Assembly: GCA_965221165.1 (NCBI GenBank)
Contig: CBDCRP010000003.1
Span: forward strand, 1,504,001 to 1,568,000
Direction: 5' to 3'
Length of the DNA stretch: 64,000 nucleotides
Source of the DNA: a bacterium
GTDB taxonomy: Bacteria; UBA8248
The notes beneath the pieces are model-generated. The model saw only the letters and a list, made by a program, of their open reading frames with translations. It ran no database searches and was not told the origin of the DNA. Position numbers and translations under genes: made by a program. Positions 13,969-64,000 of this stretch are shown piece by piece. Position 1 is the stretch's first letter. Each line of letters begins with the position of its first letter.

Positions 13969-15129
13969 TCACCCTCCACGCCGCTGCGAGAATTTTCTCC
14001 CGAAAATGCCAGAGGCAATCACGTTGCGCTGCGCCTGGGTGGTGCCGCCGCCGATGGTGAACATGCGCACGTCGCGCGCCATGCGCTCGATCGGCAAATC
14101 GCGCGAATAGCCCGCCGCCCCGAAAATCTGGAGCGCATCGTTCGTCACTTTAATGGAGGCTTCCGCCGAAAACGTCTTGGCGATGGCGGCCAGGTGCATG
14201 TCTGGAAAACCCGTTTTGGGGTCTTGCTGCACCGCCGCCCGGTGGAGCAGGAGCCGAGCGGCGTCTAGTTGAATGCGCCCATCCGCCAGAATCCACTGAA
14301 GCCCCTGGAACTCGGATATCGGGCGGCCGAACTGCTCGCGTTTTTTCGCGTATTCCACCGCCTGGGCGAAGGCGCCCTCGGCAAGGCCCAAGGCCACCGT
14401 GCCTGCCCCCACCCGCTGGGCGTTGTAGGCGGCCATCAGGCGACCGAAGCCCACCGTCACCAGGTTTTCCCGGGGCACGCGGCAGTTCTCAAAAATCTCC
14501 TCGCTCTCGGGGATTCCCCGCAAGCCCATCATGAAGGCGCGCTCCCCGATACGGAAGCCCTCGGCACCCAACTCCACGATCAGGGCGCCGATTCCCTGCT
14601 CGTCCCCCCCGTGCACCACGCGGGCGAACACGAGGTTGATGTGGGAGACGCCTGCGCCGGTAATCCACTTCTTCTTGCCGTTCAGGATGTACTCATCGCC
14701 GTCGAGCACGGCCCGCGTCGTCATATCCGTGGCGGCGCTTCCCGCCTCGGGCTCGGTGATGACGATGGCGGGCTTGTCCCCCCCGAGCACCATGGGCAGA
14801 TATTTTTTCTTCTGCTCTTCGGTACCGTACCGGATAATGGCCCCCACAACGCCCATGTTGCTGTCCACCACGATGCGCCCCGTGATGCCGCAGACCTTGG
14901 CCATCTCCTCGACCACCAGAACGGCCTCTATCAGCGGACGCTCGGGGCCGCCGAATTCCTTAGGGATATTCATGCCCATGAAGCCCGCTTCGGCCAGAAT
15001 CTTGGCGTTCTCCCAGGGATATTCCTCGGTCCGGTCCCAAAACGCCGCCCTGGGTTCTATCTTGCTCGCCGCGATTTCGCGGGCTTTTTGCCGGATTTCT
15101 CTCTGAGAGTCCGTGAGGTCGAATTTCAC
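13969..15129 (-). CDS. acd: 3-sulfinopropionyl-CoA desulfinase-like acyl-CoA dehydrogenase
   Basis: EEYPWEN, GRIVVDSNMG, GDKPAI..TEP.AGSAA, MGLRGIPE, LMAAYNAQRVGAG and RMFTIGGGT recall Advenella/Variovorax Acd desulfinases (from memory); no catalytic Glu. Confidence 0.75.
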   Translation of the reverse strand: MKFDLTDSQREIRQKAREIAASKIEPRAAFWDRTEEYPWENAKILAEAGFMGMNIPKEFGGPERPLIEAVLVVEEMAKVCGITGRIVVDSNMGVVGAIIRYGTEEQKKKYLPMVLGGDKPAIVITEPEAGSAATDMTTRAVLDGDEYILNGKKKWITGAGVSHINLVFARVVHGGDEQGIGALIVELGAEGFRIGERAFMMGLRGIPESEEIFENCRVPRENLVTVGFGRLMAAYNAQRVGAGTVALGLAEGAFAQAVEYAKKREQFGRPISEFQGLQWILADGRIQLDAARLLLHRAAVQQDPKTGFPDMHLAAIAKTFSAEASIKVTNDALQIFGAAGYSRDLPIERMARDVRMFTIGGGTTQAQRNVIASGIFGRKFSQRRGG

Positions 15130-42157: not shown

Positions 42158-43312
42158 CTAACGGAGATAAGGGCGCTCCCAAGGAGCAAAAGGACTCCTC
42201 AAAAGACGTTCCCTTTCCCCAGGCTTCGGAACCCATCCAAAATACCTCGGTGGTCGTCGGGGGGTAAGACCCCGCAACGCCCGCTCCGCCGAGGAGACAA
42301 GGAGTTTATTGCCACTCTTGCCGCCCAACTTGATTGCTTCCTCGAAATCTTTCTTCGCTTCTTTTCTTAGACGCAACTTCTCCTTCCCTTTTCTATTTAG
42401 ACTCAACGCCACTTTAGCTTTACCTCGATCATAGTACGCCGAGGCAAAATTGGTTTTCAGGTTAATTGCTTTGCCATAATCGTCGATGGCTCCTTGGTAT
42501 TTCTTCAATGCGGCCTTCGCATTGCCACGATTTTTGTAAACTATCGAATCATTTTTCAGCTTGAGCGCCTCGGTGTAATCTGTAATGGCCTTATCATATT
42601 GGCGCAATGCGGCCTTCGCTCTGCCACGATTTCTGTAAGCTATCGCGGTCTTCACATGGCCCCAGTTTTTTTCGTATATTTCCGAAGACTTCGTTTTCAG
42701 GGAGTTTACCTTTTTGATTACCACGTCGTAATCTTTAATAGCGGCTTCGTATTGACGCGCCCAAAGTTTCACAAAACCCTTTCGGTTATATAGTTTCAAA
42801 TCATTGAGAATTTTAGGTGTATCGTTCTTGTCTTTCTCTTCCAGCGTTTGCTTTTTAACCTCGCTGACTTCTGTGAAAATTTTGGCTATTTCCAAACGAA
42901 ACTCTTTAGCTCTTCCTAGCTCACGCCTCACAACATCAAGGAGTTCACTGGACTCTTTAGCATTTTCTTGTATAGTAACAATAATTTTCTGGGCTTCTGA
43001 AATACTTGCTCGCGCATCTACAACTATTTGCTTGGTCTGCTTCGCACTTTTTCCCACATCGTCAACGATTGTTTTGAGCTTCTTCACACTTTCTTGCGCA
43101 TTATTAACACTTCTTCGCGCATCATTTTCGAGTTTCGGGAATACAGCGAAACCGATAAAACCAGAGATAGCAAGAAAAGTAGCGATGCCAGTCAACCAGC
43201 GATTTAGCCGTTCAGTTCGGATTACCAGCATTTCACGCCCGAGTTCGTTGATGATGCGTTGTTTCTCGACCTCAGAGGTGGAGTTCTGTGGCTCAGGAGT
43301 CTGAGCGGCCAT
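42158..43312 (-). CDS. Membrane-anchored coiled-coil + TPR protein, AT-rich insert
   Basis: One TM helix, heptad region, then TPRs (AYRNRGRAK..L.QY..AI.DY..A; YKNRGNAK; AYYDRGKAK). Confidence 0.8.
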   Translation of the reverse strand: MAAQTPEPQNSTSEVEKQRIINELGREMLVIRTERLNRWLTGIATFLAISGFIGFAVFPKLENDARRSVNNAQESVKKLKTIVDDVGKSAKQTKQIVVDARASISEAQKIIVTIQENAKESSELLDVVRRELGRAKEFRLEIAKIFTEVSEVKKQTLEEKDKNDTPKILNDLKLYNRKGFVKLWARQYEAAIKDYDVVIKKVNSLKTKSSEIYEKNWGHVKTAIAYRNRGRAKAALRQYDKAITDYTEALKLKNDSIVYKNRGNAKAALKKYQGAIDDYGKAINLKTNFASAYYDRGKAKVALSLNRKGKEKLRLRKEAKKDFEEAIKLGGKSGNKLLVSSAERALRGLTPRRPPRYFGWVPKPGERERLLRSPFAPWERPYLR

Positions 43313-43443
43313 ATATTCCTTCACCTCCATCGGATACGCTTCTGGAACGCGCCCAAGATGGACCTTGCGATTCGCTATTGATTTTGTCGCTGGAAGGAAT
43401 TACAGCATGGTGCCCGGCGGAGCGTCAAACCAAAAGCTCCCCC

Positions 43444-50450: not shown

Positions 50451-51344
50451 TTACCTCCGCACGATCTTTTCTCCGGACCACCCTTCTTGCGTTTCCCTGA
50501 ATGACCACTCCTGCACTACGGGAAGTAAATCCCCAACCCAGGGGGTCGTAGACGACAAATTCGGGTAAAGAACATAGTCGCCGCCCAGAGACGACGGCAA
50601 ATTGAAAGCGTTCGCCCAGGACGCCAGTGCGTAAGACACATGTTTCATACTCCCGTCGGCAAACGGCTGAACTCCGATTTTCGCGCCCGATGCTTTCTGA
50701 ATCGCTTGGATGTTCTCGCGCTCGGCATTTACGATCTTTCTTGAATCCCTATCAAACTTGAAAACCATGTCACCAACACCATAGAGCGATCTCTCCATGC
50801 ACTTAGCCACATCCGCAACCCAAAAGGGTATTTCACCGCCATTGATAGCGATTACCGTATAGTCATAGCGATGGACGATTCCATCTGCTATGTACTTCCT
50901 GAATTTATTCGCTTTCTCATTGAGCGAGTTTCGGATACGCATCACGTATTGCTCGATCGGAACGTTCTGAACTGTTCCGAATTTCAGCTCCGGCACGGAG
51001 TTCGGTTTTCCAGCTTCACCTCCAGTTAAGCAAACCGCCTCTATCCAGATACGTCTGCCGTCGGCAGTTACCAAGATGTCCGGCCCAGGTTTTAGGCATT
51101 CCACCACCAATCCTGCCCTAATGAGAGATACGGTCAAATACATCTCAAACCAACGCTGATGGAAATTTTTTGCGAATTCTTGGCGAAAATGCCTGTCCGC
51201 ATGTTCAGAGAAATCACACCAAAGGTCTTCGCACTGCGCTCTCACACTTTCGTAACGCTCGTGGCCGGCTTCCTGCACTTTCTGGTACGTCAAACAGGCT
51301 CCATTGCCCGAGTGTGAAAATAGCTTTTCTCTCTTTTTCATCAT
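50451..51344 (-). CDS. Hypothetical protein, possible PD-(D/E)xK-like fold, AT-richer insert
   Basis: C-terminal 297 aa of the 615-aa ORF; AAGGA RBS before MMKKREK; F.QEF...F.QRWFEMYL...GPD...IWIEAV. Confidence 0.65.
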   Translation of the reverse strand: MMKKREKLFSHSGNGACLTYQKVQEAGHERYESVRAQCEDLWCDFSEHADRHFRQEFAKNFHQRWFEMYLTVSLIRAGLVVECLKPGPDILVTADGRRIWIEAVCLTGGEAGKPNSVPELKFGTVQNVPIEQYVMRIRNSLNEKANKFRKYIADGIVHRYDYTVIAINGGEIPFWVADVAKCMERSLYGVGDMVFKFDRDSRKIVNAERENIQAIQKASGAKIGVQPFADGSMKHVSYALASWANAFNLPSSLGGDYVLYPNLSSTTPWVGDLLPVVQEWSFRETQEGWSGEKIVRR

Positions 51345-51401
51345 ATGGTCCTTATGACAAATCCTGCCCTCAAACCGAGTCAGATTTGGACCATAGCACA
51401 A

Positions 51402-51425
51402 GGGCCACTCACGAGCGGCCCCTAC
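51402..51425. repeat. REP palindrome
   Basis: GGGCCaCTC-ac-GAGCGGCCC-CTAC; same family as 54043-54069. Confidence 0.75.
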
Positions 51426-51535
51426 ATATATTCGGGCGCGCATAGCAACAGGGCCGCTCTCACGGGCAATCTCAAACCCGCAAGAACGGCCCCTGGTTGG
51501 TGAGGCTTCTAGGCGTCGAAATACTCGCGCGTTGC

Positions 51536-52262
51536 GCGTTACCTTGAACACCATCGGCGCGAGCAGGAGAAGACCGATGAGGTTCGGCACCGCCATCAGC
51601 CCGTTCAGGGTGTCCGAGAGGTTCCAGACGAAGGCCACCTTCACGTTGGCGAAGCCGAGCGCCGCCAGCACCCAAAGGCCCCGGTAGACCATGAGGCTGT
51701 TCTCGCTCAAGAGATACTGCCAGCACCGCTCGCCGTAGTACGACCAGCCCAGGATGGTCGTGAAGGCGAAGACGGCGAGTGCGATGGTGACGATGTAGCT
51801 CCCGCCCGCGATGGTGCTCTGAAAGCCCGCCGAGGTGAGCAGGACGCCCGTCAAGCCCGCGCCGTCCGCGCCCTTCATCACCCACGCGCCCGAGGTCAGG
51901 ATGACCAGCGCCGTCATCGTGCAGACCACGATGGTGTCGATGAAGGTGCCCAGCATGGCGATGACGCCCTGGCGCACGGGGCTGTTCGTCTGCGCCGCCG
52001 CGTGCGCGATGGCCGCCGAGCCCAGGCCCGATTCGTTCGAGAACACGCGCGCGCGACGCCGAAGCGAACCGCCGCCGCCACCGCAGCGCCCGCGAAACCG
52101 CCCGCCGCAGGGGTGAAGGCGTGGGTGAAGATGAGGGCGATGGCCTGTGGCACCGAGGCGATGTTGATGAGGATGATGATGAGCGCAGCGCCCACGTAGA
52201 GGATAATCATCGCCGGCACGAGCTTGCCCACCACCTCGCCTATCCGCTGGATGCCGCCGCAG
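51536..52262 (-). pseudogene. Alanine/glycine:cation symporter (AGCS) fragment with frameshift
   Basis: GGIQRIG...LVP.M and RFGVAR in one frame; VFSNESGLGSA.IAHAAA, FIDT..VCTMT, FAFTTILGWSYYGE, NGLMA.PNL in another; shift in the CG run near 52048; N-terminal half missing. Confidence 0.85.
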
Positions 52263-52346
52263 GCTCCCTCTCCCCCGATGGCTTGCGCGGCCTCCCACGA
52301 GGCGTTCATAATCAGGATGACCAACAACGAAAAAAGGAGGCGCGCG

Positions 52347-52457
52347 ATGAAGGCACTCCTAGCGGTCCTGGCCGTCGCGGCTATCGCCCCCACCGATGGG
52401 ACGCTCTCGCGGCTCTCCCTCCGCTGGTTCGGCTTCGACCTGACGCCAAAGGAATGA
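52347..52457 (+). pseudogene. Internally deleted amino-acid ABC substrate-binding protein gene
   Basis: AGGAGG RBS; signal-peptide start MKALLAVLAVAA joined to the PAAT SBP-like C-terminus DGTLSRLSLRWFGFDLT. Confidence 0.6.
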
Positions 52458-52463
52458 CTCAGG

Positions 52464-53345
52464 ATGACTGAAGAGATCAAACCCCGGACCGACCACGAGG
52501 AAGCGGAGCGCGCAGACGACAGCGCCGCCGCCTTCACCCGGGGGGGAGACGCCGCCAAAACGCCGCGCAAGAGACTCGCGAAGGGGTTGTATGAGGCGGA
52601 ACTGGCGAGGCTCCAGATAGAACTCGTCAAGCTACAGGAATGGATACGGAATGCGGGCCTGAAAGTGGTCGTCATCTTCGAGGGGCGCGACGCGGCGGGC
52701 AAGGGCGGCGTCATCAAGCGCATCACGCAGAGTTTGAGCCCGCGCATCTGCCGCGTCGCAGCGCTGGCGGCGCCCACCGAGCGCGAGCAGACGCAGTGGT
52801 ATTTCCAGCGCTACGCGCCTCACCTGCCCGCAGCGGGCGAGATGGTGCTCTTCGACCGCTCCTGGCACAACCGCGCGGGCGTCGAGCGGGTGATGGGCTT
52901 TTGCACGGAGGAGGAATACCGCGAGTTTCTGCACTCATGCCCCACCTTCGAGCGCATGCTCGTGAGATCGGGCATCATCCTCATCAAATACTGGTTCTCG
53001 GTGAGCGATGCGGAGCAGGAGCGCCGCTTTCAGAGGCGCATCGAAGACCCCACGCGGCGCTGGAAGCTCTCGCCGATGGACCTGGAATCGCGCACCCGCT
53101 GGGTCGAGTATTCCAAGGCGAAGGACGAGATGTTCGCGCACACCGACATCAAGCAGGCCCCCTGGTACGTGGTGGACGCGGATTCGAAGCGCCGCGCGCG
53201 GCTGAACTGCATCAGCCACCTGCTCTCCTTGATCCCGTATCAAGACTTGACGCCCGCGCCCATCGAACTCCCCCCGCGCCGGCCCGAGCAGGCCTACGTG
53301 CGGCCCCCCATCGGCGAGCAGACCTTCGTGCCGGACAGGTATTGA
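52464..53345 (+). CDS. ppk2: Polyphosphate kinase 2
   Basis: FEGRDAAGKGG.IK, WYFQRY, FDRSW.NRAGVERVMGF, WKLSPMD. Confidence 0.96.
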   Translation: MTEEIKPRTDHEEAERADDSAAAFTRGGDAAKTPRKRLAKGLYEAELARLQIELVKLQEWIRNAGLKVVVIFEGRDAAGKGGVIKRITQSLSPRICRVAALAAPTEREQTQWYFQRYAPHLPAAGEMVLFDRSWHNRAGVERVMGFCTEEEYREFLHSCPTFERMLVRSGIILIKYWFSVSDAEQERRFQRRIEDPTRRWKLSPMDLESRTRWVEYSKAKDEMFAHTDIKQAPWYVVDADSKRRARLNCISHLLSLIPYQDLTPAPIELPPRRPEQAYVRPPIGEQTFVPDRY

Positions 53346-53927: not shown

Positions 53928-54042
53928 GGGTGAATACTCCCAGGGGTTGGGGGCGGCTCATGGCGTTGGTGGGGGATATCCTACCATGAGCGGGGGGATT
54001 TTCGTGGTGGGTGGGTGTTGAGGGGGGAGGGGCGGCTCACCC

Positions 54043-54069
54043 GTAGGGGCCGCTCACGAGCGGCCCTAC
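54043..54069. repeat. REP palindrome with GTAG on both ends
   Basis: GTAGGGGCCGCTC-ac-GAGCGGCCCTAC. Confidence 0.85.
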
Positions 54070-54094
54070 AGGTCAAACACGCGGCTCATCCTCT

Positions 54095-54163
54095 GCGATG
54101 CCCGAGGCGGACTACCTGACGGGCCAGACGTTGACGGTGAACGGCGGATGGCTGATGATGTGA
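54095..54163 (+). pseudogene. 3' remnant of an SDR gene
   Basis: AMPEADYLTGQTLTVNGGWLMM* directly upstream of the hyuA RBS. Confidence 0.7.
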
Positions 54164-54179
54164 GGGAGGGGCGGATGGA

Positions 54180-56324
54180 ATGGCGAAATTGGCCAGAGCG
54201 GCAAAAACGGGCGGGCGCAGCCAGGCGAAATCCCGCTTTGCCGTGGGCGTGGACGTGGGGGGTACGTTCACCGATGCGGTGATCGTGGACACGGAGCGGG
54301 GCAGGATCTATCAGTCCAAGGCCCCGACCACTCCCCAAGACCTATCGCAGGGCGTTTTCGACGCGCTGAACCTCAGCGAGGGTTTCTCGGCCGAAACCCT
54401 CCTCCCCCGGACGAACAAATTCGCTCACGGAACCACCCAGTCCACCAACGCCCTCTTCACCCGGAACGGGGCCAAGGTGGGCCTTATCGCCACCCGTGGG
54501 TTCGGGGATCAGATTCTCATCATGCGCGGCGGGGGGCGCGTGGCGGGGATGAGCCTGCCCGAGCGGCGCCACTTCGCTCCGACGTACAAACCCGATCCCA
54601 TCGTCCCCAAGCCCCTCATCGTCGAGGTGTCCGAGCGGGTGGACTACAAAGGGGCCGTCATCACCCCCCTCGACCCCGAGGAGGCACGCCGGGCGGTCGA
54701 AGCGCTTCTGGAAAAGGGGGTGGAGGCCATCTCGATTGCCCTCCTCTGGTCCCTCCGCAATCCGGCGCACGAGCGCGCCTTGCGCGATATCGCCGCCGCG
54801 CTTTCTCCCGGCACCTACGTGAGCGTCTCCTCGGAACTGGCGCCCGTCATCGGGGAGTACGAGCGAACCGCCACCGCGGTCATCGACGCCTACGTGGGTC
54901 CCTCCACCGTGGATTACATCCGCCTCCTGGCGGAACGCCTCCGTGACGCCGGACTTCGAAGCGCCCTCCTCATCCTCCAGGCGGGAGGGGGCGTCAGCCG
55001 AGCCGAGCAGGTGGTGCCGGTTCAGACCATCGAGTCGGGCCCGGCGGCGGGTATTCTGGCGAGCCAGTTCCTCGCCGAAAAACTGGGCCACCGGAACGTG
55101 ATCGCCACCGACGTGGGCGGGACCACCTTCAAGGTGGGTCTCATCGTGGAGGGCGAGTGGGCTTACGCCCGGGATACGGTGGTCGAGAAGTTCACCTACC
55201 GCGCTCCCATGGTGGACGTGACCTCCATCGGTGCGGGGGGCGGCTCCATCGCGTGGGTGGACGAGGGGAGGCTCCGAATCGGCCCCCAAAGCGCGGCGGC
55301 GGAGCCGGGGCCCGCCTGCTATGGCCGGGGGGGCGCGGAGCCCACCGTGACGGATGCGGATGTGGTGCTGGGCTACATCGATCCTGATTATTTCCTGGGT
55401 GGGCGGATGCCCCTCGAAGGCGCGCTGGCGGAAAAGTCCATCCGAGAGCGGATCGCGGAGCCGCTCTTCGGGGGCGACGTGGTGCGGGCGGCGCTGGGAA
55501 TCCGCCAGGTGGTGAACGCGCAGATGGCGGACTTGCTGCGCAAGGTGACGGTCGAGCGGGGGCACGACCCCCGCGACTTCGTCCTCATGGTGTACGGTGG
55601 GGCGGGGCCTACGCATTGCACCCTTTTCGGCCCGGAGGCGGGCGTCGGCCGGGCGGTCGTCCCTTTCACCGCGCCGGTGCACTCCGCCTTCGGCGCGGTG
55701 ACCTCGGACATGCGCATCACCCTGGAGCGGTCGGACCCCCTGGCCGCGCCGCCCGAACCGGGCCGGGTACGGAGTCTGTATCGGGCTCTTGAGAATGAAG
55801 CCCTGGAGCGGCTCAAGGCCGAGGGCAAGCGTCGGGGGGAGATCGAGCTTAGCCGCTCGGCCTCGCTCCGCTACCGCCGGCAGATGCATGAAGTGAGCGT
55901 TCCCGTTCCCGCTGGAAGGCTCGACGGAAAGGCGCTCGCGGGGACGGTGGACGAGTTCGAGCGCCGCTACGAGGCGCGCTACGGTCGGGGGGCGGCCTAC
56001 CGGGAGGCGGGGGTGGAGTTCATCGGCTTCAAGGTCGAGGCCGTCGGAAGGGAGGCGAAGCCCCGGCTCGAGCGTCGGCGCCCGAAGGGGAAGAGCCCAA
56101 GCGGCGCGCTCAAGGGCCGGCGCCCGGTTTGCTTTGACGCCGTCAAGGGCCACCGGCGCACGCCGATCTACGAGGGTGAGCGGCTGGCGTCCGGCAACCT
56201 CGTCCCGGGGCCCGCCATCATCGAGTACGCCTCCACCACGGTGGTGGTGGGGCCGCGCCAGCGGGCCGAGGTGGATCCATACCAAAACGTGACGCTCCAC
56301 CTAGGGGGAGGACGGAGGCGATGA
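54180..56324 (+). CDS. Hydantoinase A/oxoprolinase (ATP-binding subunit)
   Basis: GVDVGGTFTD, HGTT..TN, SGPAAG, DVGGTT, IGAGGGSIA, GPQSA.A.PGPACYG, TVTDA. Confidence 0.93.
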   Translation: MAKLARAAKTGGRSQAKSRFAVGVDVGGTFTDAVIVDTERGRIYQSKAPTTPQDLSQGVFDALNLSEGFSAETLLPRTNKFAHGTTQSTNALFTRNGAKVGLIATRGFGDQILIMRGGGRVAGMSLPERRHFAPTYKPDPIVPKPLIVEVSERVDYKGAVITPLDPEEARRAVEALLEKGVEAISIALLWSLRNPAHERALRDIAAALSPGTYVSVSSELAPVIGEYERTATAVIDAYVGPSTVDYIRLLAERLRDAGLRSALLILQAGGGVSRAEQVVPVQTIESGPAAGILASQFLAEKLGHRNVIATDVGGTTFKVGLIVEGEWAYARDTVVEKFTYRAPMVDVTSIGAGGGSIAWVDEGRLRIGPQSAAAEPGPACYGRGGAEPTVTDADVVLGYIDPDYFLGGRMPLEGALAEKSIRERIAEPLFGGDVVRAALGIRQVVNAQMADLLRKVTVERGHDPRDFVLMVYGGAGPTHCTLFGPEAGVGRAVVPFTAPVHSAFGAVTSDMRITLERSDPLAAPPEPGRVRSLYRALENEALERLKAEGKRRGEIELSRSASLRYRRQMHEVSVPVPAGRLDGKALAGTVDEFERRYEARYGRGAAYREAGVEFIGFKVEAVGREAKPRLERRRPKGKSPSGALKGRRPVCFDAVKGHRRTPIYEGERLASGNLVPGPAIIEYASTTVVVGPRQRAEVDPYQNVTLHLGGGRRR

Positions 56325-58528
56325 GCGGGAAGCGCCTGGACCCCGTAACCTTCGAGGTTATCCTGCACAAGCTGAACCAGATCGCCGAGGAGATGTGCAT
56401 CAGCTACGTGAATTGTTCGGGTTCGGAGCCGCTTGTCCAGGCCAACGACGCCAACGCGGGGATCACGCTGCCGGACGGCTCCATGGTGGTGGTGGGGCCC
56501 TACGTCATCATCCAGGCCAACGTCCTTCCCCTCACCGTCTCCCATATCATGAAGCGGTGCCGGGAGAATCCGGGGATCGGCGAGAAGGACATGTTCATCT
56601 GCAGCGACCCCTGGGTGGGCCCCATCCACCAGCCCGACATCACCACGGTGGCCCCGCTCTTCTACGAGGGCGATATCTTCTGCTGGACGGGCGCCTCGGG
56701 GCACCAATCGGACATAGGGGGGAAGGACCCGGGCGGGTTCTCCATCGGGGTGGTGGACGTCCACCAGGAGGGCCTCCGGATGCCCCCGGTCAAGCTGGTG
56801 GAAGAGGGAGAGCTCCGCCAGGACCTTTTCGACTGGATCGTGAACTCGGTGCGGGATCCTCTGGTGGGCCTCGACGTCAAGGGCCAGATCGCGGCCAACC
56901 ACGTGGGCCAGGAGAGGCTGATCGAGCTCATCGGGCGCTTCGGGGCGAAGGCGGTCAAGGCTTCCATGGAGGAGTCCATCCGCTACACCGAGAGGCGTCT
57001 CCGCAGGCGCCTGCGCTCTTTGCCCGACGGCACCTGGCGCACCCGCCAGCACATCGATCACGACGGCCACGCGCCCAACCTCTACAAGATGGAATGCACC
57101 ATGACGAAGCGGGGCGACAGCCTCTCGTTCGACTACGAGGGAACCGACCCCCAGGTGCGCAGCCAAGTGAACTGCACCTACACCGGCCTCATCGCCGGGA
57201 CCCTCACCCCCGTCTATATCATGCTCGCCCACGACATCCCCTGGAACCGCGGCATCCTGAACCGGGTGGACATCCGCGCCCCCGAAGGGGTGATCAACAA
57301 CTGCACCTATCCGACGCCCTGCTCCATGGCCACGGTATCGGCCTGTTACCTGACGCTGGACCTCGCCGCGGCCGCCATCAACCAGATGTGCGCGGCCTCG
57401 CCGGACTACCACGAGGAGGCCATGGCGATCTGGACCGCCGCCTCGGTGGCCCCCATGGTGAGCGGCACCAGCCAGCACGGCCATCCGTTCAGCCTAGTCG
57501 AGATGAGCCACTTCGCCGCGGGGGGCGGTGCCCTGACCCACAAGGACGGACAGGACAGCGCCGGGATGTACTTCACCACCACCCCCCTCATCTCCAACAT
57601 CGAGACCACCGAGCAGTTCTACCCCGTCCTCTACCTCTTCCGACGGAATCTCCCGGATACCGGGGGGGCGGGCATGTACCGGGGCGGGTGCGCGGGCGAG
57701 ATCGCCTTCATCCCGCACGACATGCAGAAGGAGTTCCACGAAACCGTTCTCATCGGAACCGGTCACGAGATGCCCAACTCGATCGGGCTGTGGGGTGGAT
57801 TTCCCGGCGGTACCGGACGCCACATTCTCATACGCGGCTCGGACGTTCTGGACCGAATCGCGAAGAAAGCGCCCCTTCCCGCCACCCTGGAGGAAATGGG
57901 GGGCGAGCAGGTGGTCTTTCCGCCCAAGGCGCCCCGGACGCCCTTCTACCCGGGCGAGATCTGGTACTCGAACTGGCAGGGGGCGGGCGGATACGGTGAC
58001 CCCCTGGACCGCGACCCCGAGGCGGTGCATGCCGACCTGTCGGCGGGGCTCGTCACCCGCGCCTGCGCCGAAGAGATCTACGGCGTGGCCCTGGATCCAG
58101 ACGGGCGGGCGGACCATCCGGCCACTTCCGCCCTTCGGGAGCGCCATCGGGAGGCGCGGCGCGCGCGGGCGGGAGGCGGCTCCGTCCGCCCGGGCGACCC
58201 CCCGGCCCTTGCGGGAAGAGGGCTTCGGGCGAACGAGTACGTTGTCTGGGACGATGCGAATGGTGAACTCGCCTGCCGCAAATGCGGCTTCGGCTTCGGC
58301 CCCATGGACGCGGATCCCAAAGAGCGCGCCCTCTGCGAGGACGCTCCCCTCGCGGTCGGAGGGCCGATCATGGGGCAGCTCTATGACCGGGGGCGGTTCG
58401 TCTTTCGGCTCTATTATTGTCCCGGCTGCGTTTCGCTCCTGGAGTGCGAGGTTCTCCGGAAGGGGGACCCACCCGTCTGGGGCAGGCTCTCGGCGACCCG
58501 GCCCTGGCCGGGGAGAAAGAAGGTCTGA
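56321..58528 (+). CDS. Hydantoinase B/oxoprolinase fused to an acetone-carboxylase gamma-like domain
   Basis: LDPVTFEV, DPW.G..HQPD, H.SD.GG, EGL.MPP.KL, GGYGDPL.R; tail CRKC...YCPGC..LLE.E. Confidence 0.9.
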   Translation: MSGKRLDPVTFEVILHKLNQIAEEMCISYVNCSGSEPLVQANDANAGITLPDGSMVVVGPYVIIQANVLPLTVSHIMKRCRENPGIGEKDMFICSDPWVGPIHQPDITTVAPLFYEGDIFCWTGASGHQSDIGGKDPGGFSIGVVDVHQEGLRMPPVKLVEEGELRQDLFDWIVNSVRDPLVGLDVKGQIAANHVGQERLIELIGRFGAKAVKASMEESIRYTERRLRRRLRSLPDGTWRTRQHIDHDGHAPNLYKMECTMTKRGDSLSFDYEGTDPQVRSQVNCTYTGLIAGTLTPVYIMLAHDIPWNRGILNRVDIRAPEGVINNCTYPTPCSMATVSACYLTLDLAAAAINQMCAASPDYHEEAMAIWTAASVAPMVSGTSQHGHPFSLVEMSHFAAGGGALTHKDGQDSAGMYFTTTPLISNIETTEQFYPVLYLFRRNLPDTGGAGMYRGGCAGEIAFIPHDMQKEFHETVLIGTGHEMPNSIGLWGGFPGGTGRHILIRGSDVLDRIAKKAPLPATLEEMGGEQVVFPPKAPRTPFYPGEIWYSNWQGAGGYGDPLDRDPEAVHADLSAGLVTRACAEEIYGVALDPDGRADHPATSALRERHREARRARAGGGSVRPGDPPALAGRGLRANEYVVWDDANGELACRKCGFGFGPMDADPKERALCEDAPLAVGGPIMGQLYDRGRFVFRLYYCPGCVSLLECEVLRKGDPPVWGRLSATRPWPGRKKV

Positions 58529-58896
58529 GGTCGAATGGGAAAAAGAAGCGACACTTCTTTTTTTTCGGTCCATCGAGAGACCCTTGTTGACGTTGATGAA
58601 GAAACGGTTCCTGACACCGTTTCTTGCTACCGGTCGAATTCGCCTCGTTCAGCGGCCTTTCATTCTCTGCTCGGCTCGTATTCTTCGTTCCTTCCAGACT
58701 TCGTCCAAACCTCGTTCATCCAGTTTAATCCATTTTATATCAATTGGTTGAGCCGAATTATCCACCTCCGGCAGGTAACCCGCGACAGGGCCGGGGACGG
58801 CGCCCGGCCGCAGTGTCAGGAACCAGACAACGGACTGTCAAGAGGGCTGCTCAGCTCAAAAATGCTCCCGGATTCGGCAGCAATGTGAGAAAACAA
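57436..58896 (+). repeat. 1461-bp direct repeat, copy 1
   Basis: Matches 61297-62757 (offset 3861); all overlapping ORFs in the track translate identically. Confidence 0.95.
58539..58566. terminator. Bidirectional terminator-like hairpin after hyuB (repeated at 62400-62427)
   Basis: GAAAAAGAAG-cgaca-CTTCTTTTTT. Confidence 0.55.
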
Positions 58897-58917
58897 AACT
58901 ATTTTTGTTCGCCTACA

Positions 58918-59057
58918 CGCATCGAAACCGCAGTCGATTGTGTCCTGGTCATCGACCACAACCCGGGGCTCGAAGACCTCACCGCCCAGATTTGCGGCGG
59001 CGGACCCGAGCCCATGCGCCAGCGTATGGACGAGAAATTCCCGACCGCCGCCCTGGC
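58918..59057 (+). pseudogene. Internal fragment of a SixA-like histidine phosphatase gene
   Basis: VLVIDHNPGLEDL...RMDEKFPTAALA matches the SixA pattern GHNP...KFPT. Confidence 0.7.
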
Positions 59058-59103
59058 CGCGTGGGTGGACGAGGAGAGGCTCCGAATCGGCCCCCAAAGC
59101 GCG

Positions 59104-59202
59104 CCGGCCGAAGCCGAGGAACGCCACTACGCTATGCTGGAGCAGTCAGCCATGGCGGCGTGACTCAAACAAAATGGCCTCCGCCAAACCCGGCGCGGTT
59201 CA
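59104..59202 (+). mobile_element. 3' end of an IS3-family (IS51-like group) element with right IR
   Basis: Transposase C-terminus PAEAEERHYAMLEQSAMAA* followed by GGCCTCCGCCAAACCCGGCGCGGTTCA. Confidence 0.8.
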
Positions 59203-59289
59203 GCGTGACAGCGATGTTTTCTGTTACAAATCTATGGTATAAAGAATCCCGGAACTTCTACTAGTTTAAGATAAGAAAGAGAACAGCCA

Positions 59290-60441
59290 ATGCTGACTGT
59301 CATCAAGCCTGTGAATACCGTAAAGCTGGCCATTGCAGGGGTTGGAAATTGTGCGAGCTCGTTGGTTCAGGGCATTGCGCATTACAGGAAGGGCCGCGTC
59401 GAGGTCCTGCCCGGTCTGATGCACCCCTGTATCGGGGGCTGGGGCCCGGGTGATCTGGAGGTCGTGGCCGCCTTTGACGTCGACCGCCGAAAGGTCGGGC
59501 GACCCCTGGAGGAGGCGATCTTCGCCAAGCCCAATTGCACGATGGTCTTCGAGGATGAGCTTCCCTCATCGGGCGTCGTGGTCCAGATGGGACCCGTTCT
59601 CGACGGCGTTGCGCCACACATGGCGGATTATCCCGATGACGAGGCATTCCGTCCGGCCGATGCCGATCCGGTTGATATCGCAGATGTCTTTAAGCGAACC
59701 GGCGCGGAGGTGCTGGTCTGCTACCTGCCGGTCGGCTCGGAGCAGGCGGCGCTGCATTACGCCCAGGCCTGCCTCGACACGGGCGTTGCCATGGTGAACT
59801 GCATACCCGTGTTCATCGCCTCAAATCCCAGCTGGGCGGAGAAGTTCAAGATCGCTGGGGTGCCAATCGTGGGCGACGACATCAAGAGCCAAGTCGGCGC
59901 CACGATCGCACATCGGCTCTTGACACGTCTGTTCGGCGACCGCGGTTACACCCTGGACCGCACCTATCAACTGAACACCGGCGGCAACACCGACTTCCTC
60001 AACATGAAGGCCCTGGACCGGCTGACATCGAAGAAGGTGTCCAAGACGGAATCCGTTCAATCGCAACTCGATGTGCGCCTCGGCGGGCGCGACATCCATA
60101 TCGGCCCGTCAGACTACGTGCCCTGGCAAGGCGACAACAAAGTCGCCTTTATCCGCATGGAAGGACGCGGGTTCGGCAGCGCTCCCATCGAGATCGAGAT
60201 GCGCCTCTCGGTCCAGGATTCGCCCAACAGCGCCGGCGTCGTCATCGACGCCGTCCGCTGCGCCAGGCTCGGCATGGTGCGGGGTATGGCGGGTCCGCTG
60301 GAAGCGCCGTCTTCCTATTACATGAAATCGCCGCCGGTCCAGATGCGCGATTCCGTCGCCCGCGACTTGTGTGACGCGTTCATCGAAGAAGGGCGCGCCG
60401 AAGCACCGGCGGCCCGAATCGTGAAGTCGGCGGCGGAGTAG
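59290..60441 (+). CDS. ino1: myo-inositol-1-phosphate synthase
   Basis: GVGNCASSLVQG, YLPVGS, NCIPVFIAS, GDDIKSQ.GAT..HR, LN.GGN.DFLNM, SKK.SKT, DSPNSAG, YYMKSPP. Confidence 0.95.
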   Translation: MLTVIKPVNTVKLAIAGVGNCASSLVQGIAHYRKGRVEVLPGLMHPCIGGWGPGDLEVVAAFDVDRRKVGRPLEEAIFAKPNCTMVFEDELPSSGVVVQMGPVLDGVAPHMADYPDDEAFRPADADPVDIADVFKRTGAEVLVCYLPVGSEQAALHYAQACLDTGVAMVNCIPVFIASNPSWAEKFKIAGVPIVGDDIKSQVGATIAHRLLTRLFGDRGYTLDRTYQLNTGGNTDFLNMKALDRLTSKKVSKTESVQSQLDVRLGGRDIHIGPSDYVPWQGDNKVAFIRMEGRGFGSAPIEIEMRLSVQDSPNSAGVVIDAVRCARLGMVRGMAGPLEAPSSYYMKSPPVQMRDSVARDLCDAFIEEGRAEAPAARIVKSAAE

Positions 60442-60477
60442 ACGCGTGTTCCAACCACGGTGGGGGAGCCTGGTGAC

Positions 60478-61272
60478 ATGACCGGAGAGGAGGCGAGCGC
60501 CGGCATGTCCGGGCATTTCGCCAGGGTGGCGGAGGTCTACGGCACGGTCCGGACCACCGATCGGGACCCGGTCCACTATATTCGCGATGCCCTGGCCGAT
60601 CGGGCAAACGTGCGCGCGGCCGATATCGGATGCGGCGACGGGCGCTACGACAGGCTGCTGTTCGACCATATACCCAACCTGCACCTCGTCTGCGTGGATT
60701 CCAGCGCGCCGATGCTGGAACGCCTCTTCGATTGCCTCGCTGAGGCGCGCATCGACAATTTCGTGACCCGGTTGTCCGGCGTCAACGACTTGGCGCTCGA
60801 GGACGATTCCCTGGACGCCATCCTCACCTTCAATGCGGTGCACCATTTCAACGTTCCCGCCTTTCTGGCCAAAGCCCGGCGCGCGCTCAGAGACGACGGC
60901 CGCCTGTTCATCTATACACGCACGCCCGAACAGAACGCGGGCACCCTATGGGGGCGTTTCTTCCCGCGCTTCACCGAGAAGGAATCGCGGCTCCACACTA
61001 TCAAAAGCATGGAAGCATGGATCGCCGGGACACCCGGCCTCGAAATGGTCGAGGCGAGAGTGTTTAGATATGCCCGGACGGCAAGCCTGGACCGCCTGTT
61101 CGAACAAATGCGGAGCCGGCACTACTCGACCTTTTCGCTCTATGACGAGCGGGAGTTCGAGGAAGCATGTCGTGGTTTCGACGAACGAATCCGCGACGCG
61201 TTCGATGATCTCGAGGCCATTCGATGGTACGACGAGAACATCATGCTGCACCTGGTTAGAATCGAGGTCTGA
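60478..61272 (+). CDS. Class I SAM-dependent methyltransferase
   Basis: ADIGCGDGRY, VDSS..ML, NAVHHF, L..DGRL; directly downstream of ino1. Confidence 0.88.
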   Translation: MTGEEASAGMSGHFARVAEVYGTVRTTDRDPVHYIRDALADRANVRAADIGCGDGRYDRLLFDHIPNLHLVCVDSSAPMLERLFDCLAEARIDNFVTRLSGVNDLALEDDSLDAILTFNAVHHFNVPAFLAKARRALRDDGRLFIYTRTPEQNAGTLWGRFFPRFTEKESRLHTIKSMEAWIAGTPGLEMVEARVFRYARTASLDRLFEQMRSRHYSTFSLYDEREFEEACRGFDERIRDAFDDLEAIRWYDENIMLHLVRIEV

Positions 61273-61296
61273 CCGGCCCCTGTCCGGGACACGGCT

Positions 61297-62757
61297 CGCC
61301 GCCTCGGTGGCCCCCATGGTGAGCGGCACCAGCCAGCACGGCCATCCGTTCAGCCTAGTCGAGATGAGCCACTTCGCCGCGGGGGGCGGTGCCCTGACCC
61401 ACAAGGACGGACAGGACAGCGCCGGGATGTACTTCACCACCACCCCCCTCATCTCCAACATCGAGACCACCGAGCAGTTCTACCCCGTCCTCTACCTCTT
61501 CCGACGGAATCTCCCGGATACCGGGGGGGCGGGCATGTACCGGGGCGGGTGCGCGGGCGAGATCGCCTTCATCCCGCACGACATGCAGAAGGAGTTCCAC
61601 GAAACCGTTCTCATCGGAACCGGTCACGAGATGCCCAACTCGATCGGGCTGTGGGGTGGATTTCCCGGCGGTACCGGACGCCACATTCTCATACGCGGCT
61701 CGGACGTTCTGGACCGAATCGCGAAGAAAGCGCCCCTTCCCGCCACCCTGGAGGAAATGGGGGGCGAGCAGGTGGTCTTTCCGCCCAAGGCGCCCCGGAC
61801 GCCCTTCTACCCGGGCGAGATCTGGTACTCGAACTGGCAGGGGGCGGGCGGATACGGTGACCCCCTGGACCGCGACCCCGAGGCGGTGCATGCCGACCTG
61901 TCGGCGGGGCTCGTCACCCGCGCCTGCGCCGAAGAGATCTACGGCGTGGCCCTGGATCCAGACGGGCGGGCGGACCATCCGGCCACTTCCGCCCTTCGGG
62001 AGCGCCATCGGGAGGCGCGGCGCGCGCGGGCGGGAGGCGGCTCCGTCCGCCCGGGCGACCCCCCGGCCCTTGCGGGAAGAGGGCTTCGGGCGAACGAGTA
62101 CGTTGTCTGGGACGATGCGAATGGTGAACTCGCCTGCCGCAAATGCGGCTTCGGCTTCGGCCCCATGGACGCGGATCCCAAAGAGCGCGCCCTCTGCGAG
62201 GACGCTCCCCTCGCGGTCGGAGGGCCGATCATGGGGCAGCTCTATGACCGGGGGCGGTTCGTCTTTCGGCTCTATTATTGTCCCGGCTGCGTTTCGCTCC
62301 TGGAGTGCGAGGTTCTCCGGAAGGGGGACCCACCCGTCTGGGGCAGGCTCTCGGCGACCCGGCCCTGGCCGGGGAGAAAGAAGGTCTGAGGTCGAATGGG
62401 AAAAAGAAGCGACACTTCTTTTTTTTCGGTCCATCGAGAGACCCTTGTTGACGTTGATGAAGAAACGGTTCCTGACACCGTTTCTTGCTACCGGTCGAAT
62501 TCGCCTCGTTCAGCGGCCTTTCATTCTCTGCTCGGCTCGTATTCTTCGTTCCTTCCAGACTTCGTCCAAACCTCGTTCATCCAGTTTAATCCATTTTATA
62601 TCAATTGGTTGAGCCGAATTATCCACCTCCGGCAGGTAACCCGCGACAGGGCCGGGGACGGCGCCCGGCCGCAGTGTCAGGAACCAGACAACGGACTGTC
62701 AAGAGGGCTGCTCAGCTCAAAAATGCTCCCGGATTCGGCAGCAATGTGAGAAAACAA
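61297..62757 (+). repeat. 1461-bp direct repeat, copy 2 (contains 5'-truncated hyuB, 61297-62389)
   Basis: Begins 24 bp after the methyltransferase stop; matches 57436-58896. Confidence 0.95.
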
Positions 62758-62877
62758 TGTCTCGATTCGCAATTATTTTTGTTTCCCCACACTGGCGCCG
62801 CCGGCGAGATCGCCTCACCGGCTCAAGGCGTCACTTGTTACGAGCGAGGCTGCCGCCCCGATAACGCTCCGCCTTCG

Positions 62878-63822
62878 TCACTCCGTGAAGGACTGGTGGG
62901 TCTTCATCACGTTGTAGCTGTGAAGGTCCCGGAAAAAGCCGATCCGCGGGTGATCCTCGGGCGGGGAGTAGGGCCTGTCGAGAGCGAACGGGATCCGCTC
63001 CATCGCCTCGGCGAGCGTCCATCCGGCGCTGACGGCCCCGCGAACAGACTGGGTCACGTCGCTCAGGTATTGCATGTACCCGCCCAGGAGCTCCGGCCCC
63101 GAAATGGGGTTGTGGGCGGGTATGAGGGTTTCGACCTCGAGCGTCTGGGCGAGGCGCGCGATCGAGTTCATGTAGGTCGGCGCGTCGCTCTCCAGGGGGA
63201 CGATGAGGTTTCCGCCCGTCATGTTGCCCGTCCAGGCGGCCTTCGCCTCGGGAACGTAGGTGATGGTGTCGCCGGGGGTGTTCGCCGGGCCGAAATAGTG
63301 CAGCTCCACCACCTTTCCCCCCAGGTCGATCCGCAGGTAGTCGTCGAAGACGACGTCGGGGCGGCGCAACTCCACCTCCTCTAAAATCTTCGGGTCGTTC
63401 CCCACGCAGGGCAGCATGAAGCGCCTCTCCTCCTCGTGATAGGGAACGAGGTCCGCCGTCCGGCGGTGCTGGATGATCACCGTCTCGGCCGGAAACGCGC
63501 AGTTCCCGAAGGTATGGTCCCCGTGGTAGTTGGAGTTGACGAGGTAGCGGATGGGCTTATCGGTCACTTCGCGCACCCGTTCCTGAATCTGGCGCCCCAT
63601 GGCCGGGTTGATGTGGGCGTCGACCACCAGCACGTCTCTATCACCCACGACGAAGCCGACGTTGTCCACGTTGGGGACGGAGGAAAGAAGCGCGTACACC
63701 CCCGGAGAGAGCTCCTTCGCGTCCAGCCGCGCCCCCGTCGGGTCGAGGAAGAAGGGAGTGAATCCCTCCGGAAAATCCGCCCACTCCAGACATTTCCAAC
63801 CATCCTTCGCAGAAGCGTTCAT
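62878..63822 (-). CDS. MBL-fold metallo-hydrolase (cyclase-like) with altered metal ligands
   Basis: NVGFVVG...LVVD, NSNYHGDH.FGN, GPANTPGD, WTGN, IPAH; AAGGAG RBS. Confidence 0.85.
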   Translation of the reverse strand: MNASAKDGWKCLEWADFPEGFTPFFLDPTGARLDAKELSPGVYALLSSVPNVDNVGFVVGDRDVLVVDAHINPAMGRQIQERVREVTDKPIRYLVNSNYHGDHTFGNCAFPAETVIIQHRRTADLVPYHEEERRFMLPCVGNDPKILEEVELRRPDVVFDDYLRIDLGGKVVELHYFGPANTPGDTITYVPEAKAAWTGNMTGGNLIVPLESDAPTYMNSIARLAQTLEVETLIPAHNPISGPELLGGYMQYLSDVTQSVRGAVSAGWTLAEAMERIPFALDRPYSPPEDHPRIGFFRDLHSYNVMKTHQSFTE

Positions 63823-63866
63823 CTCGGACTCCTTTCAGCTATCGGCTGGTATGCGCGCCTCACCAC

Positions 63867-63994
63867 TGTAGCTGGACAAAATAATTGCAAAAGGCCTAAA
63901 AATCAACTTTTTACAGGCCATTCGCAATTATTTTTGTTTGACTACAAACAGGCGGTTTTTCCAAGCCATTCGCAATTATTTTTGTTCGGCTACA
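63867..63994. mobile_element. Miniature element built from TGTAG..ACAAAA(A)TAATTGC terminal repeats
   Basis: 63867-63946 is an 80-bp imperfect palindrome; its right arm is repeated 48 bp later (63965-63994); half copies at 58897-58917 and 62765-62791. Confidence 0.65.
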
Positions 63995-64000
63995 GCGGCG

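Follow-up and report, generated by a model that had tools for sequence, protein, structure and literature searches.

How can a bacterial cell take up new genes in the middle of an operon and lose none of the genes that were already there? This question is raised by the hyuAB operon (genes resembling the alpha and beta subunits of hydantoinase/oxoprolinase) located in a 64,000-nucleotide stretch of DNA from a bacterium of the UBA8248 lineage (assembly GCA_965221165.1, contig CBDCRP010000003.1, positions 1,504,001 to 1,568,000), hereafter called the window, where a cargo made of an IS3 stub, ino1 and a methyltransferase gene is situated between two copies of a long segment of hyuB. We give slightly better than an even chance to the reading that the cargo was inserted with a long target duplication by repair and replication functions of the host, with no transposase or integrase involved, and most probably as a single coupled episode.

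Layout of the duplicated hyuAB segment and of a second insertion

The self-comparison of the window has revealed the order a-core-B-x-a-cargo-B, where B is the duplicated target, a is a short patch copied from hyuA, x is a spacer, and J1 to J4 are the joints. The participating features are the following:

54180..56324, plus strand: hyuA-like hydantoinase/oxoprolinase alpha subunit gene, intact, 714 aa (PF01968/PF05378/PF19278)
55250..55295, plus strand: a, source of the patch inside hyuA, identical in the related locus L010
55296..57435, plus strand: core of 2140 bp, i.e. the 3' half of hyuA and the 5' half of hyuB, missing from the second copy
56321..58528, plus strand: hyuB-like beta subunit gene, intact, 735 aa (PF02538), with 8 residue differences from L010 and no internal stop
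57436..58896, plus strand: first of the two B copies (1461-bp direct repeat), the target that was duplicated; single copy in L010
58884..58917, no strand: 34-bp Tn7-like scar, with a 13-bp inward-facing end stub (the last bases of B) and the 21-bp end E1; J1 (58896/58897) lies inside
58918..59057, plus strand: 140-bp internal piece of a sixA-like histidine phosphatase gene (TIGR00249, E 0.008); its right end is J2
59058..59103, plus strand: 46-bp patch copied from hyuA, with one mismatch at 59075; its right end is J3, the joint to IS3
59102..59202, plus strand: last ~100 bp of an IS3-family element, with the C-terminus of orfB and the right inverted repeat
59290..60441, plus strand: ino1, myo-inositol-1-phosphate synthase (TIGR03450 at 441 bits, below the cut-off of 638; PF01658), also present in the related locus L007
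60460..61272, plus strand: class I S-adenosylmethionine (SAM) methyltransferase gene, in frame behind the ino1 stop (PF08241/PF08242/PF13649), not recognisable as a DNA methyltransferase
61297..62757, plus strand: B, second copy, a 5'-truncated hyuB; J4 at 61297-61299, with imperfect microhomology to ~61316

The two copies of B (57436-58896 and 61297-62757) are equal at 1461 of 1461 bases, and the repeat is maximal; the second copy carries only the 3' half of hyuB. The patch (59058-59103) differs from its source (55250-55295) at one of 46 positions, the corresponding blastn match extending over 68 columns at 89.7% (E 1.5e-17). The insert as a whole is 2400 bp (58897-61296), i.e. below 20 kb, and is devoid of transposase or integrase genes, containing only IS3 and Tn7-like stubs; its spacer x (161 bp, 58897-59057) consists of 21 bp of a Tn7-like end and 140 bp of the sixA-like gene, the latter being 39-49% identical to histidine phosphatases in the best 15 of 24 plasmid records. 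The pieces of sixA, hyuA and IS3 orfB (58918-59163) are each joined in their native frame, within a chimeric open reading frame (ORF) of 139 codons (58744-59163).

A previous sequence-only reading of the window had described the 1461-bp repeat at an offset of 3861, the 46-bp recurrence of hyuA with one mismatch at an offset of 3808, and a 2140-bp core facing a 2193-bp block with an IS3 right end, ino1 and a methyltransferase; the repeats and the sizes agree with our self-comparison, exactly so for the long repeat, and the content of the block has been borne out by homology and profile searches. That reading missed the composition of x (a Tn7-like end and a sixA piece), the location of the end of B inside a Tn7-like scar, and the imperfect character of the microhomology at the joints.

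One genome scan with the Tn7-like end motif has returned 12 loci, of which three GC-rich records contribute 8; the AT-rich loci L004, L006, L012 and L013 were dropped as probable chance matches, and none of them matches the window. Two places on one of the GC-rich records, the chromosome OZ244713.1, carry the argument. At 2.92 Mb (L009/L010), hyuAB occurs once, followed by an end element and the same hydrolase gene as in the window, with no cargo: this is the empty site that the sequence-only reading had proposed to look for in related genomes, with B present once and lacking its last 190 bp. The window is 98.8% identical to this site at the DNA level over 54084-58706, and both copies of B hold all 16 differences from L010 within the shared 1271 bp; therefore, B was copied from the window's own allele or from a near-clonal one, and either the event is recent or the copies have been homogenised.

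At 1.71 Mb (L007), 1.2 Mb away from hyuAB, the same cargo is located in an ABC-transporter operon, with 9 differing columns in 2151. Here the order is a-core-B-a-(32 bp)-cargo-B, with a core of 2614 bp and an insert of 2405 bp: repeat B is 232 bp long (5250-5481/7940-8171, one mismatch), as compared with 1461 bp in the window, both being long (>30 bp) direct repeats that flank the insert, and the patch is an exact copy of 50 bp (2586-2635/5485-5534) taken from 2899 bp upstream. The IS3 remnant at the left of the cargo is ~100 bp in the window and the last 54 bp in L007, while at the right side L007 keeps ~220 bp more than the window; since each genome retains a stretch beside the cargo that is missing in the other, the insertions occurred independently and neither is derived from the other. 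The replaced and the inserted lengths are close in both cases (2140/2193 and 2614/2405), with chance values of ~0.005 and ~0.021 under a local null. The interpretation of the second hyuAB copy as one whose middle has been swapped for a block of similar length is thus strongly supported, by the same layout on an independent chromosome and by the empty hyuAB site. No empty site has been seen for the L007 event, and a search for exact repeats of at least 22 bp has detected no further a-core-B-a-X-B layout in the other 7 of the 8 GC-rich loci. In L007 (5482-8936), the duplication covers the overlapping stop and start of an ATPase and a permease gene; both genes are whole, and the permeases are now located behind the cargo.

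Joints, proposed mechanism and rival explanations

Three of the four joints in the window (J4, J3 and J1) carry imperfect microhomology. At J4, the continuation of the cargo, as seen in L007, agrees with hyuB at 57436 in 15 of 20 bases, a level reached by 3 of 58,800 window positions, and the site is the best match in 54000-58896; the IS3 piece at J3 is similar to the stretch of hyuA that would have continued there and was lost, and at J1 a slip of 13 nt brings E1 into similarity with E2 (the Tn7-like end behind the second copy of B). Exact overlaps are short, 3 bp at J4 and 2 bp at J3 (the latter measured with a proxy IS3), each followed by an imperfect tract. Among 20,000 random sites, right-side homeology as good as that observed occurs 56 (J4), 50 (J3) and 0 (J1) times, whereas the tested left sides of J4, J3 and J2 are null, with 14,426 of 20,000 for J2. 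At J4, J3 and J1, it is the right-hand partner whose sequence continues through the imperfect tract, and one polarity fits all three: a bottom-strand 3' end would prime on each new template, moving leftwards. The sequence-only reading had suggested capture through one long arm and a microhomology joint, which comes close, but there are four joints, and the joint of the cargo to B is itself an imperfect microhomology (15/20).

In the proposed mechanism, an ectopic single strand with the IS3 stub, ino1 and the methyltransferase gene would be joined to hyuB at imperfect microhomology (J4), and, being roughly in register with the chromosome, it would form a second joint in hyuA (J3), at a distance of about one cargo length, a length-matched swap as in homology-facilitated illegitimate recombination (HFIR). 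Instead of fixing the deletion of the 2140-bp core, the new strand would leave after 46 nt and be rejoined behind its start via the 161-bp spacer x, either directly between sister arms or via a 3861-bp circle that would enter by a single crossover in B; the outcome would be that hyuA and hyuB stay intact, with the cargo between two copies of B. We infer the single-strand donor, the order of the steps, the single episode and the selection for a non-destructive outcome. The facts to be explained in both genomes are the long duplication, the match in length between cargo and core, and a patch of only ~50 bp (46 and 50), and we favour a coupled event because it explains the three together. The duplicated form should be favoured by selection, since a pure swap would break hyuA and hyuB, and three genes in L007.

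Several points weigh against this mechanism. There are only two instances, both known from assemblies alone, and five joint sides of L007 are weak or null (725, 1880, 9834, 11963 and 13215 of 20,000). The 13-nt offset at J1 was picked once the sequences had been inspected, and the test there sets two copies from a single repeat family against each other; the left side of J3 was tested with a proxy IS3, and the direction of the fork is unreadable from the fourfold-site skew (Fisher p 0.83). The mismatch of the patch to hyuA is absent from L010 and can be explained equally by a donor allele or by a copying error; in a sibling allele, x may simply follow B in the native sequence, which would suit an explanation in two steps.

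According to this two-step explanation, which we regard as unlikely, a sibling fixed a substitution allele a-cargo-B (core deleted, followed by E1-sixA), and a fragment of it, taken up at a later time and circularised through an illegitimate joint at J2, entered the B of an intact allele by a single crossover. The length match is then explained directly, the mismatch in the patch is accommodated, and x could natively follow B in the donor, with both B ends in Tn7-like scars; moreover, in E. coli, 109-950 bp of the arm are reported to have been duplicated where recircularised fragments integrated by single crossover (PMC3240628), and transformation merodiploids are described as tolerating an otherwise lethal cassette (PMC3784515). 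However, in both genomes the fragment must have ended no more than ~50 bp from the cargo joint, and the donor allele must do without functional hyuA and hyuB (in L007, without the M20 peptidase, the binding protein and the ATPase), and the one related genome that has these genes has shown no such allele. The same closeness of ends speaks against the other route offered by the sequence-only reading, a plain tandem duplication of 55250-58896 after which the cargo took the place of the central part of one copy, perhaps with some trimming by subsequent deletions: the final layout would be the same and a spare copy would tolerate the swap, but in both genomes the swap must stop ~50 bp or less from the duplication junction, at 46 of 3647 and 50 of 2896 bp (~2e-4 jointly, if uniform), and identical copies of B leave little time for trimming, so that we consider this route very unlikely.

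The layout could also be an effect of assembly, where the 3861-bp unit is a free circle, a collapsed array, a strain variant threaded into the contig, or where the joints are chimeras of amplification, the circle or the array being the most plausible among these; we hold this to be quite unlikely. Copies of B that are 100% identical are what is expected if an assembler loops through one node, and no near-identical truncated hyuB occurs among 8000 candidates of 198-630 aa (best 48%), an uninformative result, since clustering under the full-length protein would hide one. On the other side, the overlaps at the joints (3 bp at J4, and 2 bp at J3 with the proxy) are too short for assembler joins, the imperfect microhomology at J4 is predicted from an independent record, and a record of a single chromosome has the same layout with other sequences and non-identical repeats (one mismatch in 232). 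The least probable of the accounts weighed here is that a transposase, of IS3 or of the TnsB type acting on Tn7-like ends, moved the cargo and made the duplication. An IS3 right end is located ahead of ino1 in both genomes, B ends inside a Tn7-like scar, and Tn7-like ends cluster around hyuAB and the hydrolase gene; yet the left cargo joints lie inside orfB, ~100 and 54 bp from the IS terminus (59102-59104 and 59149), the right end of the IS faces the cargo, the right cargo joints differ by ~220 bp between the genomes, and J1 sits 21 bp inside an end and not at its terminus. In addition, no Tn7-like end is present at any joint of the L007 event, no 5-bp target duplication is paired around facing ends of one locus among 17 flanks, and no TnsA, TnsB or TnsC has been found among the 60 window ORFs and 112 locus ORFs scanned, with L009 and most L007 ORFs inspected by eye only. 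Action of a transposase is unlikely because no cargo joint is at an element terminus and no Tn7-like end is at the joints of L007; the Tn7-like ends are a bystander or a hotspot, not the mover of the cargo.

Returning to the proposed coupled insertion by host functions, its significance lies in the fact that the same cargo, which is not a restriction-modification system, has been inserted twice at unrelated loci, each time with a short patch positioned to match the length of the cargo. This links insertion with long target duplication to the keeping of register that is typical of HFIR-like events, and it offers a searchable signature, i.e. two direct repeats of unequal length at nearly equal offsets. 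A cell can in this way gain genes inside an operon, losing none, in a form that is able to amplify or to revert: amplification or excision through the 1461-bp repeats is expected from standard RecA genetics. Two independent fixations of a 99.6% identical cassette would point to recent selection for inositol synthesis in the lineage. Tentatively, and as a possibility to which we give clearly less than an even chance, the lineage may habitually capture genes by a one-step route without recombinases, where an in-register swap aborts at ~50 nt and jumps back, leaving an a-core-B-a-cargo-B scar; the patch would then be the trace behind long target duplication in general, with no restriction enzyme needed.

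Cargo genes, Tn7-like ends and the resident neighbourhood

The cargo had previously been called foreign, and homology agrees: the IS3 end, aligned to an annotated IS3 and its inverted repeat, is 83-90% identical to IS3 ends on alphaproteobacterial plasmids (best 30 of 492 records), and among the relatives ranking highest for ino1, the named ones belong to alphaproteobacteria or proteobacteria (76-78%). Composition, on the other hand, does not mark the block as foreign, its GC content at third codon positions (0.78) being within the range of the 27 other window genes measured (0.72-0.88), so that the label is due to homology and not to composition. Among the 388 plasmid records that have a match, none has 80% of the cargo, and no sigma-70-like promoter has been found in 58500-61400.

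Profile scans have detected no DNA-methylase or nuclease family in the cargo, which is not a restriction-modification system. The methyltransferase has a partial match in PADLOC to mad2 (residues 33-170, E 3e-15) that is confined to the SAM fold, generic methyltransferases are the best matches of solved structure (E 1e-5), and a 51% homologue in L008 is not accompanied by ino1 in its 20-kb locus. The product of ino1 is inositol 1-phosphate; methylation of inositol by the neighbouring methyltransferase may be guessed from the adjacency of the genes. The two genes are in frame across a TAG codon (60439-60441), at which the representative of protein cluster P0002 (a cluster of 68), a 660-aa fusion, has Gln, either a real variant or a choice of code in gene calling. 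Programmed read-through between ino1 and the methyltransferase has been rejected as a candidate: the stop is the norm, as L007 has the same stop and 7 of 7 homologues at 82-90% (P0003, P0005-P0010) end at the same motif.

The remaining features of the region are the following:

58707..58896, no strand: 190 bp absent from L010 (169 bp of Tn7-like end sequence there), present in both copies of B
62745..62791, no strand: 47-bp Tn7-like scar with E2 at its end; its final 32 bp and the flank are as in the empty site
62878..63822, minus strand: metallo-beta-lactamase-fold hydrolase gene, native right neighbour of hyuB, under every NCBIfam cut-off; block 95.4% identical to L010
63867..63994, no strand: stack of Tn7-like ends, with an 80-bp imperfect palindrome (63867-63946) and a further end at 63994

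The end motif, which occurs in 5 copies in the window, all in 58897-63994, starts with TGT and is composed of an 8-bp end followed by an A-rich TnsB-like site; the copy in L009 has three TnsB-like sites with a spacing of 22 bp, and repeated TnsB sites are described as the design of Tn7-family ends (PMC10201428). E1 has 19 identities in 24 columns with the Tn7 end of plasmid R721 that is distal to tnsA, and 20 ends have been compared with the R721 ends. The last 13 bp of B form an inward-facing stub that agrees with E2 in 11 of 13 positions, a match found at 2 further places in 127,974 positions; given this stub, fused ends form a scar at the end of either copy of B. The segment 58884-58917 could be read as a loxP-like 13-8-13 site, but this was dropped, because the spacer of the second copy is 21 bp, the other members of the family are plain ends, and the two short scars do not fold better than their shuffles (26 and 132 of 200). 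The end stack does fold better than its shuffles (z -6.8, with 0 of 200 as good).

Position 3 is G or C in each of the 17 outer flanks, 11 of which agree with NYSRN, a label that comes from Mu; this pattern was noticed before testing, and some of the flanks may be non-independent. The TnsB of type V-K, for which a preference for GCWGC is described, differs from the flank pattern at the centre (bioRxiv 10.1101/2023.07.14.548620). Tn7-like end stubs and two-ended scars (34-284 bp), a family found throughout the lineage, cluster at boundaries of accessory genes in the window (58884-63994) and in L002, L003, L005 and L007-L011; no target duplications, nearby tns genes or parent element of this family have been seen in those loci. 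The family thus shares with Tn7-family ends the TGT terminus, the 8-bp end and the TnsB-like sites, and differs from them in consisting of stubs and 34-284-bp scars, with neither paired target duplications nor tns genes in the loci scanned. The six bases after E5, the last end (63995-64000), are the same as the start of the flank of a different end of opposite orientation in L009 (9729-9739), which hints at an inversion or a shuffle between ends, the comparison covering only these six bases. Searches of plasmids for the end stack and for 58690-59070 have given 2 weak records each.

Behind hyuB, the segment 58707-58896 has replaced a segment of similar length in an older event, and it shares its right end with B; in the second copy it corresponds to 62568-62759, 192 bp as compared with 169 bp in L010 (9823-9991). 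The shared hyuAB block begins (window 54084-54163; L009 from 11812 onwards) with what appears, by eye, to be the 3' remnant of a short-chain dehydrogenase gene; since this remnant is joined to different upstream sequence in each genome, the hyuAB module itself would have arrived or moved via an illegitimate joint. Upstream of 54084, the window has no match in L009 except short repeats. For the RuvB of the host, relatives have been found at 83-94%, along with one at 78% that is labelled Nitrospinota. No tRNA and no Rfam match at the gathering score have been found in the window, ruling out a tRNA-attachment site.

Further from the insertion, a sodium:alanine symporter gene is in pieces, in two frames (50451-52777), one piece running in frame into an ORF that resembles the defence proteins PD-T7-5/PD-T7-1 (E 1e-15), and a TPR-repeat gene of low GC content with an internal 99-bp repeat (42158-43330) is unlike its neighbours. 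In L008, a 96-bp copy (93%) of the start of a nitrilase gene is located 2965 bp upstream of the gene (9368-9463/12333-12428), near a Tn7-like end and with no accompanying second repeat, and an autotransporter in L010 (14122-15408) has near-identical internal repeats of 351 bp.

Comparison with known systems

A close counterpart is the insertion with long target duplication described in PMC2853133: in both cases, an insert below 20 kb is located between long direct repeats of variable length that are single copy at the empty site, no transposase or integrase is present, and the resident gene stays intact. The difference lies in the cargo, which consists of restriction-modification genes there, as that class is defined, and is metabolic here, and in the repeats, which reach 423 bp among the rows listed in that source as compared with 1461 bp in the window. 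The authors suggest a property of restriction-modification systems such as double-strand breakage, leaving the mechanism as a suggestion, and we have seen no mention there of an upstream patch in register or of a mosaic junction; nor have we found a description of an in-register patch in the literature consulted, subscription papers and supplements not being covered.

In HFIR, as presented in PMC3240628, a segment of a size similar to the insert is replaced through a long arm and an illegitimate joint, and one-armed fragments can circularise and duplicate the arm. These elements recur here; however, the classic form deletes the core, which in the window survives in the first copy with no net deletion, and here the arm is joined to the cargo by a microhomology joint. 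HFIR is further characterised by 3-10 bp of microhomology at the illegitimate joint and by dependence on RecA and natural competence; the exact matches in the window are 3 bp at J4 and, with the proxy IS3, 2 bp at J3, both leading into imperfect tracts. In the process known as SPDIR (bioRxiv 10.1101/2023.11.22.568220; 10.1101/2024.07.02.601687), ectopic single strands anneal at extended microhomologies with mismatches or gaps, and the patches described there, from 3 to ~100 bp, cover the 46- and 50-bp patches reported here. The right end of the patch in the window has such an extended microhomology (50/20,000), the left side of J2 being null at 14,426/20,000; SPDIR, though, is described as yielding microindels, whereas here a kilobase cargo and a long duplication accompany the patch, and donor sequence is not retained across J4.

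Repeated template switching is reported to put nearby sequence into duplication junctions in the MMBIR-type amplicons of E. coli (PMC3161906), which share with the present events several microhomology joints per event, nearby sequence at the junction and duplication by return to replicated DNA, and transformation merodiploids (PMC3784515) share the keeping of both alleles; the cases presented in these two sources use self DNA or pre-existing long repeats, and we have seen in them neither foreign cargo nor matching of register. Each ingredient of the proposed mechanism is known; however, with one cargo and one kind of trace found in two independent natural events, it becomes possible to test how a type of insertion that has been only loosely explained comes about.

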